Source: a virus
Taxonomy: Duplodnaviria; Heunggongvirae; Uroviricota; Caudoviricetes
Strand: one strand, 5' to 3'
IMG/VR virus record: IMGVR_UViG_2851938318_000015
DNA length: 36,695 bases
Shown here: one piece after another, positions 2,540 to 9,025 of the stretch
How the letters are laid out: each line of letters opens with the position of its first letter
Position numbering within the stretch: the first letter of the stretch is position 1
Notes under the pieces: generated by a model
Database searches by the model: none
What the model saw: the letters and a program-made list of their open reading frames with translations, nothing else
Told to the model about the DNA's origin: nothing
Program-made: the position numbers and the translations under genes

Positions 2540-3310
2540 GAACCGCCCCGGGTTTCCTGGAGAGTGTTTTATCTGTGAACTCAGGCTGCCAGATCATCGT
2601 TTCCGATGGAAGCATAATAAGCTTTTTCTGCTTCTGCCGGAGGAGTATGGCCCAGCCTTCCCAGCAATCGTCGATTGTTATACCAGTCCACCCACGTTAG
2701 TGTGGCCAGTTCCACTTCTGCACGGTTTTTCCAGCTCTTACGGTGTATTACCTCCGCTTTGTAAAGACCATTGATGCTCTCAGCCATCGCGTTGTCATAC
2801 GAGTCGCCTGTACTCCCTGTTGATGCCAGTAATCCGGCTTCTTTTAGTCGCTCCGTATAGGCCAGTGACACATACTGAGAGCCTTTATCGCTGTGATGGA
2901 TGGTGCCAGACGGACGACGGGCCCACAACGCCTGCTCCAGCGCATCCAGCACGAATGTCGTTTCCATAGACGATGAGACCCGCCACCCCACGATGTATCC
3001 GGCAAACACATCAATGATAAACGCCACATAGACGAAGCCCTGCCATGTGCTGACGTAAGTAAAATCAGCCACCCACAGCTGGTCAGGTCGTTCTGCCACG
3101 AACTGACGGTTTACGCGGTCGCCTGCGGCAACGGCTTTCCGGCTGATGGTCGTACGGACCTTTTTACCCCGGAGAACACCGGCAAGTCCCATAACCGCCA
3201 TGAGACGTGCCACTGTACATCTGGCCACCCTGATTCCTTCCCGTAACAACTGACGCCAGACTTTACGCACACCGTACACCTGATGATTTTCATCGTATAC
3301 GCGCTGTATC
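2540..3310 (-). mobile_element. Truncated IS3-family insertion sequence (IS629/IS1203-like), 3' portion only
   Basis: Terminal inverted repeat TGAACCGCCCCGGGTTTCCTGGAGAGTGTTTTATCTGTGAACTCA beginning at 2540; orfB-like reading frame on the minus strand; similarity ends near 3310 with no orfA. Element name recalled from memory. Confidence 0.7.
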
Positions 3311-3389: not shown

Positions 3390-3977
3390 ATGGCAACGGA
3401 TAACTGTACCCGCTGGGTGTTGTCTGTTGTGCGTCGGGATCTCGGTTTTGATGACAGTCACGTTGTGACAATGCCGGAACTGTGCTGGTGGCTGATTCGT
3501 AATGACCTGGCGGATGCCTTACCGGAAAGTGCAGCCCGTAAGGCACTGAGATTACCGAAGCCTGTTGTGCCGTCTGTCACCCGGGAAAGTGACCTTGTGC
3601 CTTCGGTTCCTGCCACCAGCATCATCCAGGATAAAGCGAAAAAGGTGCTGGCGCTGAAAGTGGATCCGGAGTCGCCGGAGTCTTTTATGTTACGCCCAAA
3701 ACGTCGCCGCTGGGTTAATGAAAAGTACACGCGCTGGGTTAAGACACAGCCGTGTGCATGTTGTGGAAAGCCCGCTGATGATCCCCACCACCTGATAGGC
3801 CACGGTCAGTGTGGAATGGGTACAAAAGCGCATGACCTTTTTGTGTTGCCTTTGTGCAGAAAGCATCACGACGAGCTGCATGCGGATACCGTGGCATTTG
3901 AAGAGAAGTATGGCTCTCAGCTGGAGCTGATATTTCGTTTTATCGATCGTGCGCTGGCAATTGGCGTACTGGCGTAA
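3390..3977 (+). pseudogene. DUF968-family phage protein (YdfU-like), N-terminally truncated at the IS junction
   Basis: Cysteine/histidine-rich C-terminus (CACCGKPADDPHHLIGHG...LCRKHHDELH) as in nin-region DUF968 proteins; the reading frame begins right at the IS fragment boundary. Confidence 0.55.
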
Positions 3978-3990
3978 GTGGAGAACGAGC

Positions 3991-4743
3991 ATGAACCTTG
4001 AAGCCTTACCGAAATATTACTCCCCGAAATCTCCAAAACTGAGCGATGACGCACCGGCGACAGGCTCTGGTGGTTTAACAATTACGGATGTGATGGCTGC
4101 GCAGGGGATGGTGCAGTCAAAAGCACCGCTTGGGTTTGCTTTATTCCTGGCAAAAGTTGGTGTTCAGGATCCTCAGTTTGCGATTGAAGGTCTGCTCAAT
4201 TACGCGATGGCACTGGATAACCCGACATTGAATAAATTGAGTGAAGAAACCCGGCTACAGATCATTCCTTACCTTGTGAATTTTGCCTTTGCTGATTATT
4301 CCAGGTCTGCGGCAAGTAAGGCTCGCTGTGAGCATTGTGCTGGTACTGGATTTCATAATGTATTGCGCGAGGTGGTGAAACACTCCAGAAGCGGGGAATC
4401 TGTTATTAAGGAAGAGTGGGTGAAGGAACTATGTCAGCATTGTCATGGTAAGGGAGAAGTCAGCACAGCATGCAGAGGGTGCAAGGGTAAAGGTATTGTC
4501 CTGGATGAAAAAAGAACCCGGCTTCATGGCACGCCTGTTTATAAGGTTTGTGGGCGTTGCAATGGAAACCGGTTTAGCCGTTTACCAACCACACTGGCGC
4601 GGCTTCATGTCCAGAAGCTGGTACCAGACCTGACGGATTATCAGTGGTACAAAGGATATGCAGATGTCATTGATAAACTGGTTACAAAGTGCTGGCAGGA
4701 AGAAGCATATGCAGAGATACAATTGAGAAAGGTGACAAGATAA
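3991..4743 (+). CDS. Q: Late-gene antitermination protein Q (phage 82/Qin-type)
   Basis: MNLEALPKYYSPKSPKLSDDAPATG... N-terminus and a Cys-rich zinc-binding region (CEHCAGTG...CQHCHGKG...CRGCKGKG); placed upstream of tRNAs and the lysis genes. Confidence 0.75.
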   Translation: MNLEALPKYYSPKSPKLSDDAPATGSGGLTITDVMAAQGMVQSKAPLGFALFLAKVGVQDPQFAIEGLLNYAMALDNPTLNKLSEETRLQIIPYLVNFAFADYSRSAASKARCEHCAGTGFHNVLREVVKHSRSGESVIKEEWVKELCQHCHGKGEVSTACRGCKGKGIVLDEKRTRLHGTPVYKVCGRCNGNRFSRLPTTLARLHVQKLVPDLTDYQWYKGYADVIDKLVTKCWQEEAYAEIQLRKVTR

Positions 4744-4850
4744 ATGGTTTTCGCCGAAGATGACGACATGATGCTTGCATTTTTCAAAAAATATGGATAA
4801 GATTTTCCCAACGATGGGCTTTGTATGTCTACCGTTGATAAGATTTAAGA

Positions 4851-4877
4851 ACCCGCCGATGCGCGGGTTTTTTTGTA
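4851..4877 (+). terminator. Intrinsic terminator candidate downstream of Q (pR'/tR' region)
   Basis: cccgccgatgcgcggg hairpin followed by a 7-T run. Confidence 0.45.
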
Positions 4878-5054
4878 CCCAGAATCCTGTGAGCTATACG
4901 GAAAGTACACAGAAAGGAAGGTGCGACCACAATTAATAACAAAATCTTAAAAATTGCACATGGCACTATTAGTTTTCTAAATATTGTGTATTTTTTGTAT
5001 TGCAGGATGACCCTGTAACGAATTTTGCGTAACAGCATTTTGCTCTACGAGTTT

Positions 5055-5084
5055 GCCAGCCTCCCCCAGTGGCTGGCTTTTTTA
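5055..5084 (+). terminator. Intrinsic terminator candidate (tR'-like)
   Basis: gccagcc / ggctggc 7-bp stem with a 9-nt loop, followed by a T-run. Confidence 0.5.
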
Positions 5085-5089
5085 TGTCT

Positions 5090-5205
5090 GTAGCGTCAAA
5101 GCAGCAATGTCGCTGGGGCGTCGTGCAATTGGCGTTGAGCTGGAGACTGAACGTTTTGAGCAGACGGTCAGGGAAGTTCAGGATTTAGTCAGTCAGAACG
5201 GATGA
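5090..5205 (+). pseudogene. Possible C-terminal remnant of a DNA methyltransferase
   Basis: Short frame translating ...SLGRRAIGVELETERFEQTVREVQDLVSQNG, resembling the conserved C-terminal motif of N6/N4 DNA methylases; no upstream body present. Confidence 0.3.
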
Positions 5206-5245
5206 TATTGCAGGATTAGTTACGTACCGTTATTATCCTGCGCCC

Positions 5246-5321
5246 GGCCCTTTAGCTCAGTGGTGAGAGCGAGCGACTCATAATCGCCAGGTCGCTGGTT
5301 CAAATCCAGCAAGGGCCACCA
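5246..5321 (+). tRNA. ileZ: tRNA with CAU anticodon (ileX/ileZ-like tRNA-Ile2, or Met)
   Basis: Manual cloverleaf fold: acceptor ggccctt/aagggcc, D-stem gctc/gagc, anticodon loop ctCATaa, T-loop ttcaaat, 3' CCA. Close to my recollection of E. coli ileX. Confidence 0.8.
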
Positions 5322-5330
5322 TATCACATA

Positions 5331-5407
5331 CCGCCATTAGCTCATCGGGATAGAGCGTCAGCCTTCGAAGCTGGCTGTGCGGGGTTCAAGTCCCCGATGG
5401 CGGTCCA
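5331..5407 (+). tRNA. tRNA-Arg, anticodon read as UCG
   Basis: Cloverleaf: acceptor ccgccat/atggcgg, anticodon stem tcagc/gctgg, loop ctTCGaa, T-loop ttcaagt, CCA. Anticodon read by hand. Confidence 0.7.
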
Positions 5408-5420
5408 TTATCAGCATCAT

Positions 5421-5497
5421 GCGTTGTTAGCTCAGCCGGACAGAGCAATTGCCTTCTAAGCAATCGGTCACTGGTTCGAATCCAGTACAACGCGCCA
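5421..5497 (+). tRNA. tRNA-Arg, anticodon UCU (decodes rare AGA)
   Basis: Cloverleaf: acceptor gcgttgt/acaacgc, anticodon stem attgc/gcaat, loop ctTCTaa, T-loop ttcgaat, CCA. Confidence 0.75.
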
Positions 5498-6022
5498 CAC
5501 CACACTTATCTGCCCTGACTCTCTTTTGCGGGCTTTTTATTACAGGAAAGACACCGGACAGTGAAATGTTAAATGCCTCACAATTCAGGTAGTCGACTGT
5601 TGCCTGACATGCTGAGCGTTTGTTAAAAAAATCCTGCATGATGAATCCCCCTGGGCGGCGGGGCATAATGACAGATGTTTGGTTGCGTATTGTATAGGCA
5701 AGTTGCGGATTCTGTCTGGTCATTGCAGAATTCACCGGGAGGCACCCGGCATCATGCTGTATACAGAGATTAGGCATATATCCAGGCTCCTCATCGCAGG
5801 AGCCTTTTTACATGCAAAAAAAGCCCGAGTAGGTTCGGGCAACAGCATGAGATACTTGCATTGTCATTTTTATCGTGTGGATTTTAACCAGGGTTTATCA
5901 GGCTGCGCAACTGCGTGGCCTTTTTTCATTTCTTGGGCTGTAGTCCCCGTGTGTCATTCAGGCTTCCGGACTACAGCCCACTCCATATCTGATTTAATAC
6001 ACTATCCCGGCCGGGAGGAATA

Positions 6023-7873
6023 ATGACATTTAAACATTATGATGTTGTCAGGGCGGCGTCGCCGTCAGACCTTGCGGAAAAGCTGACACACAAACTGAAA
6101 GAGGGCTGGCAGCCATACGGCGGACCGGTTGCCATTACGCCGTACACACTGATGCAGGCGGTGGCTATTGAAGGAGAGCCACAGGTCGGCCCTTCATCTG
6201 AGCCGGATTGGTACTACGTCATCGTACTGGCCGGGCAGTCCAATGCCATGGCTTACGGTGAAGGGCTTCCGCTGCCGGATTCATACGATGCTCCGGATCC
6301 GCGCATTAAACAGCTGGCGCGCCGCAGTACAGTTACGCCGGGTGGGGCTGCCTGCAGATATAACGATATTATTCCGGCCGACCACTGCCTGCATGATGTG
6401 CAGGATATGAGTACGCTGAATCATCCGAAGGCAGACCTGAGCAAAGGGCAGTACGGCTGTGTCGGCCAGGGCTTACATATTGCCAAAAAACTGCTTCCGT
6501 ATATCCCGAATAACGCGGGGATCCTGCTGGTACCATGCTGTCGTGGTGGTTCGGCATTCACCCAGGGCGCGGAGGGGACATTCAGTGCGGACGCGGGGGC
6601 CAGCCAGGATTCGGCGCGCTGGGGTGTGGGTAAACCGTTATATCAGGACCTGATTGCGCGCACTAAAGCTGCATTACAGAAGAACCCGAAAAATGTGTTG
6701 CTGGCGGTGTGCTGGATGCAGGGAGAGTTTGACATGAGCGCCGCCACCCACGCACAGCAACCTGCGCTGTTTACAGCCATGCTGGCACAGTTTCGTGCTG
6801 ACCTCTCCGTGTTTAACGCGCAGTGCCATGGTGGCAGTGCTGCAGATGTGCCGTGGATTTGTGGTGACACGACGTATTACTGGAAAAATACATACGCTAC
6901 CCAGTACGACACCGTGTACGGCGGGTATAAAAACAGGGAGAGTGAGGGCGTTTATTTTGTGCCCTTCATGACAGACGGTAACGGCGTCAATACCGCCACT
7001 AACGCGCCGGCAGAAGATCCGGATATTCCGGCATCAGGATATTACGGTGCGGCATCGAGAACGAATGGAAACCAGGTATCATCAAACCGCCCGACACATT
7101 TCAGTTCATGGGCGCGCAGGAGCATTATTCCGGATCGTCTGGCAACCGCTATTCTGAACGCAGCCGGGCGCACCTCAGCCTTCATCAGTGGTAAGGCACC
7201 GGAAATCAAACCCTCGCCCGGCGGCAACACGCCATCGGGTCCGTCTGCAGATACGTCCGTTCGCACAATCTCCCTGCTGCCGGCAGCCGGAGAGGCTGCT
7301 GCGCAGGGCTGGAGCATTAAGGATGGCGGAATTCAGTTGTCAGATGGTGTATTTAAGATCACCAAGCAGAGCAATAAAACCTGGTCCCTGACGCATCCGG
7401 TGGATGACGCAATTACCCTGCTGACACAGGGCGGCAGACTGACCTGTAAGTTCCGCCTGTCAGGCGCGCTGACCAACAATCAGTTCGGGCTGGGGATTTA
7501 TCTGTATACGGATGCTCCCGTTCCTGATGGTGTGGCGATGACGGGTACCGGTAATCCGTTCCTGATGTCGTACTTTACTCAGACCACTGACGGCAGAGTG
7601 AATCTGATGCATCACAGGAAAGCCGGAAACACGAAGCTGGGGGAGTTCGGCGATTACGGTAACGACTGGCAGACGCTGGAGCTGGTGTTCACCGCCGGCA
7701 GTGCCACGGTTACTCCGAAACTGAATGGAGTGGCTGGCCCGGCATTCCAGGTTATAAAAGACAGTCTGACACTGGGACTGAATGCGCTGACGCTGACGGA
7801 TGTTACAAAAAATGCAGCGTATGGCGTTGAGATAGAAAGTCTGGTGCTGGAGATAAATGCACCGGCAGCATAA
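6023..7873 (+). CDS. Prophage sialate O-acetylesterase (NanS-p-like; DUF1737 N-terminus plus SGNH esterase domain)
   Basis: 616-aa ORF starting MTFKHYDVVRAASPSDLAEKL... (DUF1737-like) followed by VIVLAGQSNAMAYGEG (SGNH-type GQSN motif); sits between Q/tRNAs and the lysis cassette, where Stx phages carry stx and nanS-p. Confidence 0.65.
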   Translation: MTFKHYDVVRAASPSDLAEKLTHKLKEGWQPYGGPVAITPYTLMQAVAIEGEPQVGPSSEPDWYYVIVLAGQSNAMAYGEGLPLPDSYDAPDPRIKQLARRSTVTPGGAACRYNDIIPADHCLHDVQDMSTLNHPKADLSKGQYGCVGQGLHIAKKLLPYIPNNAGILLVPCCRGGSAFTQGAEGTFSADAGASQDSARWGVGKPLYQDLIARTKAALQKNPKNVLLAVCWMQGEFDMSAATHAQQPALFTAMLAQFRADLSVFNAQCHGGSAADVPWICGDTTYYWKNTYATQYDTVYGGYKNRESEGVYFVPFMTDGNGVNTATNAPAEDPDIPASGYYGAASRTNGNQVSSNRPTHFSSWARRSIIPDRLATAILNAAGRTSAFISGKAPEIKPSPGGNTPSGPSADTSVRTISLLPAAGEAAAQGWSIKDGGIQLSDGVFKITKQSNKTWSLTHPVDDAITLLTQGGRLTCKFRLSGALTNNQFGLGIYLYTDAPVPDGVAMTGTGNPFLMSYFTQTTDGRVNLMHHRKAGNTKLGEFGDYGNDWQTLELVFTAGSATVTPKLNGVAGPAFQVIKDSLTLGLNALTLTDVTKNAAYGVEIESLVLEINAPAA

Positions 7874-8321
7874 TAAAAAAAGAGCCAGCGACTGACCTGA
7901 AAGAAGACGCTGGCTAAAAGGCCTTATATGTTTGTAGAGACTTATTTTTCACAGACAGCAATGATGCCTGTCAATATATTATCAATATGCGGATTGTTTC
8001 AGTTACAGATGCTTTATTAAGGAAAAAAACAGCCAGCACTGACTTTCGGTGGAGAGGTGCTGGCTCAGAAGGATAGTTGGATTTCACATGATACTTATGC
8101 CTGGCGGTATATTTTCTGACAGACAGTGACGGGTGTTGTCAAGATATTGTGTCATTTATAACCTGAATCAGGGGGTGGCCGGAATGTTATCTGGCATTTT
8201 TAGCAGAGCCTGAATGCCATAATCACGGCTCCCGGAGTTGGCCGTCAGTGGGTGACACTGGCGGCTTTTTTGTTTTTCTTTACTTTCATTTTCTGTCGGC
8301 GGTGACGGAGACATACATCAG

Positions 8322-8528
8322 ATGGAAAAAATCACAACAGGTGTGTCATACACCACGTCAGCGGTGGGGACGGGATACTGGTTACTGCAGCTGCTGGACA
8401 AAGTCTCTCCGTCCCAGTGGGTGGCAATAGGTGTGCTGGGAAGTCTGCTGTTTGGCCTGCTGACGTATCTGACAAATCTTTATTTCAAGATTAAAGAAGA
8501 TAAGCGTAAGGCTGCGAGAGGTGAATAA
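8322..8528 (+). CDS. S: Holin (class II, phage 21 S-like)
   Basis: 68 aa with two hydrophobic segments and a charged C-terminus ([13 protein letters not shown]); stop overlaps the endolysin start. Confidence 0.8.
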
Positions 8529-9025
8529 TGTCGCCGTCATTACGCAAGGCTGTTGCAGCTGCTATTGGTGGTGGGGCTGTTGCCATAGCGTCTGTGCTCA
8601 TCACTGGTCCAGGTGGTAACGATGGTCTGGAAGGTGTCAGCTACATACCATACAAAGATATCGTTGGCGTATGGACTGTATGTCACGGACACACCGGAAA
8701 AGACATCATGCCCGGTAAAACGTATACCGAAGCAGAATGCAAAGCCCTCCTGAATAAAGACCTTGCCACGGTCGCCAGACAAATTAACCCGTACATCAAC
8801 GTCGATATACCGGAAACAACGCGCGGCGCTCTTTACTCGTTCGTTTACAACGTGGGCGCTGGCAATTTCAGAACATCGACGCTTCTTCGCAAAATAAACC
8901 AGGGCGATATCAAAGGCGCATGTGATCAGCTACGGCGCTGGACATACGCTGGCGGTAAGCAATGGAAAGGGCTGATGACTCGCCGCGAGATTGAGCGTGA
9001 AGTCTGTTTGTGGGGGCAACAATGA
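8528..9025 (+). CDS. R: Endolysin (phage lysozyme, GH24 family, with N-terminal signal-anchor-release segment)
   Basis: N-terminal [18 protein letters not shown] hydrophobic segment, then a T4-lysozyme-like region ([23 protein letters not shown]...); follows the holin. Confidence 0.8.

Follow-up and report, generated by a model that had tools for sequence, protein, structure and literature searches.

Results

Gene order in the late region of an O111:H- prophage

The stretch of DNA analysed here (36,695 nt; hereafter "the window") belongs to a lambdoid prophage integrated at dusA. It matches the E. coli O111:H- 11128 chromosome (NC_013364.1), as well as many O111 genomes, at 100% identity. The locus as such is already known: the genome is published, and stx-free nanS-p prophages as well as the sRNA pair addressed below were described previously. 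On the plus strand, gene Q is followed by three tRNA genes with the anticodons CAU, UCG and UCU (5246-5497), an interval of 525 bp (5498-6022), a NanS-p esterase gene, and S, R and Rz. This order had been proposed in an initial annotation and was borne out by ARAGORN, Rfam, Pfam and PDB matches. With Q, then a terminator and then the lysis cassette on one strand, the region has the backbone of a lambdoid late region. The features on both sides of the interval are:

3991-4743, plus strand: Q, QuuQ-like late antiterminator (PF03589 with a DnaJ-type zinc finger; Pfam E-values 6.7e-53 to 9e-53; PGAP, "antitermination protein")
4847-4875, plus strand: tR'-like intrinsic terminator, hairpin and U-run (fold -14 kcal/mol, z -4.4)
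5092-5205, plus strand: 3' remnant of a DNA methylase gene (pseudogene according to PGAP)
5246-5321, plus strand: tRNA-Ile2, anticodon CAU, ileZ type, reading AUA after lysidine modification (ARAGORN; Rfam 72.5 bits)
5331-5407, plus strand: tRNA-Arg (UCG), argN type (ARAGORN, Rfam, RefSeq)
5421-5497, plus strand: tRNA-Arg (UCU), argO type (ARAGORN, Rfam, RefSeq)
6023-7873, plus strand: nanS-p, prophage sialate O-acetylesterase of 616 aa (Pfam: DUF1737, SASA and DUF6645; lectin-like C-terminal domain)
8322-8528, plus strand: S, P21-type class II holin (Pfam, PGAP)
8528-9025, plus strand: R, lysozyme (Pfam, PGAP)
9010/9022-9489, plus strand: Rz (Pfam, PGAP)

The Q protein of the window is QuuQ-like and belongs to PF03589, whereas the Q proteins of the Stx phages BP-4795 and VT2phi_272 are 144-aa members of PF06530; the mechanically called ORF of the window Q begins with a GTG at 3949. 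The tR'-like hairpin was absent from the output of the consensus terminator scan. Similarity to Stx1 and Stx2 phages starts inside this hairpin, at position 4850, and the stretch of phage Nil3 that matches the region is annotated as tR'.

ARAGORN detected exactly three tRNA genes, in agreement with Rfam. A methionine identity of the CAU tRNA, which ARAGORN had assigned from the anticodon alone, was rejected, since this tRNA is of ileZ type and is annotated as tRNA-Ile/ileZ in RefSeq, in Sakai and in phage Lahn2. Its acceptor stem carries the pairs C4-G69 and C5-G68, which we take to be determinants for TilS. The ileZ-argN-argO cluster is 98.5% identical to the cluster of Stx2a phages, and Lahn2 carries the annotation ileZ/argN/argO. 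In a similar empty-slot prophage of E. coli 7_11_88A, the trio is replaced by one 71-nt tRNA (2462-2532 of its locus), which is annotated as tRNA-Met and whose 3' part is identical to argO from window position 5466 on. This suggests a hybrid that arose by recombination between tandem tRNA genes.

The esterase predicted in the initial annotation to lie downstream of the interval is real. Besides its Pfam domains, NanS-p matched the structures of NanS (3pt5, E 2e-121) and of a NanS-p C-terminal domain (6yp6, E 9e-30), which by homology assigns a sialate O-acetylesterase domain to the protein. Genes for NanS-p are documented in non-Stx prophages (PMC10462455, PMC8065619).

The interval lacks stx sequence and its vacant part spans 25-39 bp

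The initial annotation had considered that residual toxin sequence might be present in the interval. We searched with the four Stx subunits by tblastn (E<=100) and with stx-specific modules by blastn (E<=10), using Stx1A/B from phage BP-4795 and Stx2A/B from phage VT2phi_272 as queries. No significant stx sequence was detected in the whole window and none was supported in 5498-6022; the best match, at chance level (E 0.046), was located outside the interval, elsewhere in the window. In Stx-converting prophages, stxA-stxB lies between Q/PR' and the lysis genes, and this arrangement is not present here.

Pairwise BLAST against Stx phages and comparison of the flanks delimited the slot as follows:

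4850-5538: upstream flank of the Stx2a phage, 96.5% identity; the match runs to 35 bp beyond argO, 56 bp short of the stx2A start
5512-5538, plus strand: weak hairpin and T-run just 3' of argO, left edge of the moron slot (fold -6 kcal/mol, z -1.6)
5539-5577, plus strand: empty slot or linker, 25-39 bp by flank comparison
5564-6400: sequence following stxB1 in the Stx1 phage, 79.7% identity; the match starts 40 bp after the stxB1 stop
5578-6120: sequence following stx2B in the Stx2a phage, 77.8% identity; the match starts 46 bp after the stx2B stop

On the left side, 4850-5092 is also 99% identical to BP-4795 by BLAST. When the window was compared with VT2phi_272, phi296 and Lahn2, the stx2 module of the Stx2a phage was found to begin directly after the equivalent of the T-run, and 39 bp stand here in place of its 1341-bp module composed of promoter region, stx2A and stx2B. 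Positions 5539-5563 (ATTACAGGAAAGACACCGGACAGTG) are missing from the Stx1a and Stx2a contexts, positions 5564-5577 (AAATGTTAAATGCC) are common to the Stx1 right flank, and from 5578 onwards the sequence (TCACAATTCAG...) is common to the right flanks of both Stx1 and Stx2a. Positions 5564-6022 represent a conserved block that is found downstream of stxB in Stx1 and Stx2 phages. The "empty toxin slot" of about 520 bp, as the initial annotation had it, does not hold up: the true vacancy measures 25-39 bp (5539-5577), and the rest of the 525-bp interval is mostly the conserved post-toxin block, which carries a convergent sRNA pair.

The post-toxin block carries a convergent pair of sRNA genes

The RNA genes and signals within the block are:

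5607-5815, plus strand: STnc100-family sRNA gene (Rfam RF02076, 175.6 bits with a gathering threshold of 47, E 3.6e-41, model positions 1-206 of 206)
5816-5875, minus strand: anti-sRNA family gene, EcOnc03 allele, convergent with STnc100 (5'-CGAUAAAAAUGACAAUGCAAGUAUCUCAUGCUGUUGCCCGAACCUACUCGGGCUUUUUUU; fold z -2.4)
5882-5910, minus strand: putative anti-sRNA promoter (-35 TTGCGC at 5910-5905, 17-nt spacer, -10 TAAAAT at 5887-5882, start at C5875)
5900-5921, plus strand: intrinsic terminator overlapping the anti-sRNA promoter (terminator scan; fold -14.9 kcal/mol, z -4.1)

Tree et al. 2014 (PMC4104026) had already reported two sRNA genes in convergent orientation at the PR' moron site. The STnc100 gene of the window lies on the strand of the late transcript, ends in an intrinsic terminator (5784-5812) and is the counterpart of EcOnc27 (Sp5) and EcOnc28 (Sp9). 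In Sakai Sp5, EcOnc27 is the partner of AsxR and yields northern bands of ~235/247 nt (PMC4104026, Table S2); its northern probe, when reverse-complemented, is very similar to window 5754-5788. If the RNA of the window has the same length as EcOnc27 (235-247 nt), its 5' end may lie near 5566-5578. A sigma-70 scan for the STnc100 promoter yielded only a weak site at 5604-5632, and candidates picked by eye in the linker were poor. The Sakai coordinates given by Tree et al. are ~135 bp off those of NC_002695.2, reflecting the genome version, and were anchored via the published EcOnc03 sequence; EcOnc28 then falls inside the STnc100 match of Sp9 and not at its 5' end. STnc100 is located downstream of stxB in both Stx phages examined (191-208 bits) and is also present in every related locus fetched. 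RNAalifold analysis of seven STnc100 copies retained 40 pairs, 7 of them with compensatory changes. Also, sRNAs of STnc100/PasD type adjoin PF03589 Q and sialate esterase genes in EPEC/EHEC prophages (preprint 10.64898/2026.05.13.724894).

The anti-sRNAs have in common a 3' region of ~42 nt and differ in a 5' region of 14-18 nt (PMC4104026). Genes of this prophage family end in a Rho-independent terminator and face a longer sRNA gene convergently, between the moron site and the conserved ORF. Conserved 3' part, position and convergent orientation of the minus-strand gene all match this prophage family. Rfam scored the gene at 56.2 bits for AgvB (gathering threshold 56) and at 44 bits for AsxR (RF02703, gathering threshold 63). 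The AsxR identity was rejected on account of the latter score. The AgvB identity implied by the Rfam label was rejected as well: the motif CACAACA, the GcvB R1 target consensus, is present in AgvB and absent here, and the sequence is that of the published EcOnc03 save one base in the terminator loop (5831), the 5' variable region AAAUGACAAUGCA being identical. The assignment to EcOnc03 is based on this identity to the published sequence; the AgvB score lies only at threshold. The genuine EcOnc03 of Sakai Sp9 itself scores 56.6 bits with the AgvB model, i.e. right at the gathering threshold of 56.

The putative promoter of the anti-sRNA was read directly from the sequence and was not reported by the consensus promoter scan; the 5' end that it implies, CGAU, equals the published 5' ends of AgvB and AsxR. 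In Sakai, EcOnc03 is among the most abundant Hfq-bound RNAs, yields northern bands of 56/54/51 nt and is destabilised in the hfq deletion strain (PMC4104026). No target of EcOnc03 is reported in the searchable literature, in which the 2014 paper alone mentions this RNA. A convergent pair is also present downstream of stxB, composed of STnc100 and AsxR (88 bits) in the Stx2a phage and of STnc100 and an AgvB-threshold match in the Stx1 phage. Neither sRNA gene is included in the PGAP annotation of the genome.

Open reading frames in the interval are not conserved

The statement in the initial annotation that the interval holds no convincing ORF was confirmed. The longest ORFs in the 525 bp comprise 114 aa (TTG start, plus strand, 5679-6023) and 116 aa (minus strand); neither has a Pfam match, and PGAP annotates no gene there. 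Nevertheless, one might assume that one of them encodes an unrecognised small protein, i.e. that another moron occupies the slot. ORFs of this size do exist, and the homologous stretch of BP-4795 carries an annotated hypothetical ORF42, the 114-aa frame being open in that phage with 68% identity. However, BP-4795 is the only one among the homologous intervals in which the frame is open. Three of the four other intervals interrupt it: in VT2phi_272, phi296 and Lahn2, the plus strand stays open for at most 48-51 codons. Moreover, the ORFs share their sequence with two structured sRNA genes and three terminator hairpins, which explains the conservation of the sequence. Therefore, we rejected the protein-coding reading, which appears scarcely credible.

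The nanS-p leader contains a conserved hairpin

Between the sRNA pair and the esterase gene a further structured element was detected:

5934-5980, plus strand: 13-bp hairpin in the nanS-p leader, no U-run (fold -28 kcal/mol, z -6.0)

All 7 related loci keep this hairpin, and 3 of its pairs show compensatory changes. A small hairpin, TCCCGGCCGGGA, at 6005-6016 overlaps the Shine-Dalgarno sequence of nanS-p. Together, the two hairpins may form a cis-regulatory or processing element of the esterase mRNA. The gap between nanS-p and the holin gene (7874-8321, 448 bp) contains a strong plus-strand terminator at 8240-8266 and a promoter-like site at 7952-7980, and gave no Rfam match. According to the preprint 10.64898/2026.05.13.724894, it is at this place, by the holin/lysozyme operon, that the sRNAs PasA/PasC are typically located.

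The empty-slot junction is widespread and shared with Sakai prophage Sp9

Of 5426 complete E. coli genomes, 473 carry the empty-slot junction, O157:H7 among them. By direct reading of the sequences, phages phi296 and Lahn2 have the identical junction, and TL-2011a and PPwrbA match window 5519-5596 by BLAST. Among species-representative genomes, the linker was detected in one Escherichia sp. contig, whose arrangement is identical and which thus added no diversity.

Judged by sequence similarity, the closest characterised relative of the locus is Sp9 of Sakai, an stx-free lambda-like prophage. Like the window, Sp9 contains a methylase gene, ileZ, argO, an stx-free interval of ~523 bp, a nanS-p homologue (ECs_1781) and lysis genes; it has the same linker after argO, and the 5' variable region of its anti-sRNA is identical. 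Nucleotide identity over window 5095-7888 is 94.1%, with similarity starting at 5095. The first ~430 nt of the interval show about 10 differences, and 5930-6012 is diverged. Unlike the window, Sp9 has no argN, an intact methylase gene (ECs_1780, 1059 bp), a Q of the DUF1133/PF06530 type and a different S/R lysis set.

Stx2a phages (933W, Sp5, VT2phi_272 type) have in common with the window tR', the methylase remnant and the ileZ-argN-argO segment, all of which are 96-98.5% identical, and downstream the convergent STnc100/EcOnc27 and anti-sRNA genes followed by nanS-p. They differ by the 1341-bp stx2AB module, which is located between the argO T-run and the STnc100 unit, by an anti-sRNA that is AsxR and has another 5' region, and by the 144-aa PF06530 Q. 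Protein identity of NanS-p between the Stx2a phage and the window is 54%, and DNA identity of the downstream block is ~78%. The Stx1a phage BP-4795 and its relatives carry the post-stx block, with STnc100 and an EcOnc03-type anti-sRNA, at 84.4% identity over 5564-6022, but possess stx1AB, no tRNA genes and a PF06530 Q. Finally, the stx-free short-tailed phages phi296, phi315 and phi367 as well as TL-2011a, PPwrbA and Lahn2 resemble the window in their tRNA trio and in the same linker leading into STnc100 without a toxin gene, and in phi296 nanS directly follows. Overall identity of this group to the window is ~83%, and its members lack an EcOnc03/AsxR-type core, having a different minus-strand hairpin at this place.

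The locus is a mosaic, in which the segment from tR' to the tRNAs resembles Stx2a phages and the sRNA-nanS-p segment resembles Sp9. As Q is of a different family and NanS-p identity is 54%, the likeness to Stx phages is modular and not global.

In phiSTEC1589-Stx1c, two tandem STnc100 units (2805-3016 and 3078-3291 of its locus) are located directly downstream of stx1cB. The spacer between them, a terminator followed by AATGAGGGGAAGACACTGGGCAGTGAAATGTTAAAT, contains a homologue of the window linker.

Precise deletion of stx is unlikely to account for the junction

The initial annotation had left two options, an stx-negative relative of Stx phages or a prophage that has lost the toxin. A former stx1 or stx2 operon removed by precise deletion, leaving a clean site, would be in line with the upstream flank, which, tRNAs included, matches Stx2a phages at 98.5% identity as far as the final tRNA base, with the homology of the downstream block to post-stx sequence, and with the position of strain 11128 in an EHEC lineage in which Stx phages occur. 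We nevertheless consider such a deletion highly improbable. No stx remnant was detected by tblastn and blastn in the window, and 25-39 nt of the junction are absent from the Stx1a and Stx2a contexts and cannot be generated by a simple deletion between the flanks. Since the junction holds this extra linker, it is no fusion of Stx-phage flanks, which favours an stx-free relative. The linker would seem to be the ordinary leader of an STnc100 unit rather than a scar, because its homologue separates the tandem units in the Stx1c phage. Furthermore, the same junction is shared by the 473 genomes, which cover several serotypes, and by several free phages; identity of the downstream block and nanS-p is 94% to the stx-free Sp9 but only 77-84% to Stx phages; and Q is of another family than in the Stx phages compared. 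Accordingly, the first option stands, while loss finds no support in view of the lack of a flank fusion, the spread of the junction, the stx-free phages and Sp9. Very probably, the interval corresponds to the PR' moron site of a lambdoid prophage in its stx-free allele, i.e. the prophage is an stx-negative relative and not the product of a recent stx deletion. A much older loss of stx, in an ancestor shared by all empty-slot alleles, is conceivable, but nothing in the sequences compared points to it.

The sRNA genes are intact in a decaying prophage

Decay of the prophage is evident from several features: a fragment of an IS1203 transposase gene within the early region (2581-3309), the methylase remnant (5092-5205), an N-terminally truncated DUF968 gene (3414-3977), a frameshifted portal gene (15604-18025) and, just beyond the window, a frameshifted integrase gene next to dusA. 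A T3SS effector cluster comprising espW, a DUF1076 (NleG-like) gene and espM2 is located at the far end of the prophage (33384-35944) and is followed by a DinI-like gene (36446-36694). Just after the lysis cassette, a 104-aa PerC-family regulator is encoded (9955-10269), which we assume may be a Pch-like LEE activator.

In such a visibly decaying prophage, with truncated methylase and DUF968 genes, an IS fragment and frameshifted portal and integrase genes, the sRNA matches might be inert relics and the interval a non-functional spacer. We regard this as improbable. Both sRNA genes are full length relative to the covariance models and have intact terminators, the anti-sRNA equals, apart from a single loop base, an RNA that in Sakai is abundantly bound to Hfq, and the STnc100 structure is upheld by compensatory changes across loci. 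In addition, the sRNA promoters are known or inferred to be their own, independent of phage induction (PMC4104026).

Discussion

The data are best described by an stx-free allele of the PR' moron site. In Stx phages, the stx operon is bordered by the T-run next to argO on one side and by the 5' edge of STnc100 on the other; the prophage of 11128 has only the 25-39-bp linker in this place. In the lysogen, both sRNAs would be transcribed from promoters of their own, independently of induction, and would bind Hfq, as in O157 Sakai; expression of both sRNAs in 11128 is inferred from the near-identical Sp9 locus of that strain. By analogy to the pairs AgvB/GcvB and AsxR/FnrS, the variable 5' end of the anti-sRNA (13-18 nt) may titrate an RNA partner. 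The tRNAs would supply decoding of the rare codons AUA, CGA and AGA/AGG. If Q is made, Q-modified RNA polymerase starting at PR' would pass tR' (4847-4875) and the terminators at 5784-5812 and 5900-5921, and this readthrough would then express nanS-p, S, R and Rz. However, owing to the decay of the prophage, Q-dependent late expression may never occur, and the sRNAs, the tRNAs, nanS-p and the effectors are probably what stays useful to the host.

It is conceivable, if on balance rather unlikely, that the sRNA of the STnc100/EcOnc27 family natively has its promoter or leader in the linker (5539-5577) and that the empty-slot prophages represent the ancestral state of the PR' moron site. If so, stx1 and stx2 would each have inserted at the 5' boundary of the sRNA, with right-hand boundaries 14 nt apart (5564 vs 5578), and an sRNA previously transcribed on its own would thereby have come to lie within the 3' region of the toxin transcript. 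The flanks, 96-98% (upstream) and 78-84% (downstream) identical to those of Stx phages, would then make the locus a ready recipient for stx through recombination with a co-resident Stx prophage.

The main value of the stx-free allele described here lies in correct annotation: an interval with no ORF is not equal to an empty one. In addition, Rfam labels the anti-sRNA AgvB, though its target-determining 5' end is that of EcOnc03. Since EcOnc03-type RNAs score at the AgvB threshold, automated annotation would mislabel them as anti-GcvB RNAs despite the absent GcvB-target motif. Beyond annotation, the boundaries of the stx modules, precisely mapped here against the empty allele, may give some minor help in work on the movement of stx from prophage to prophage.
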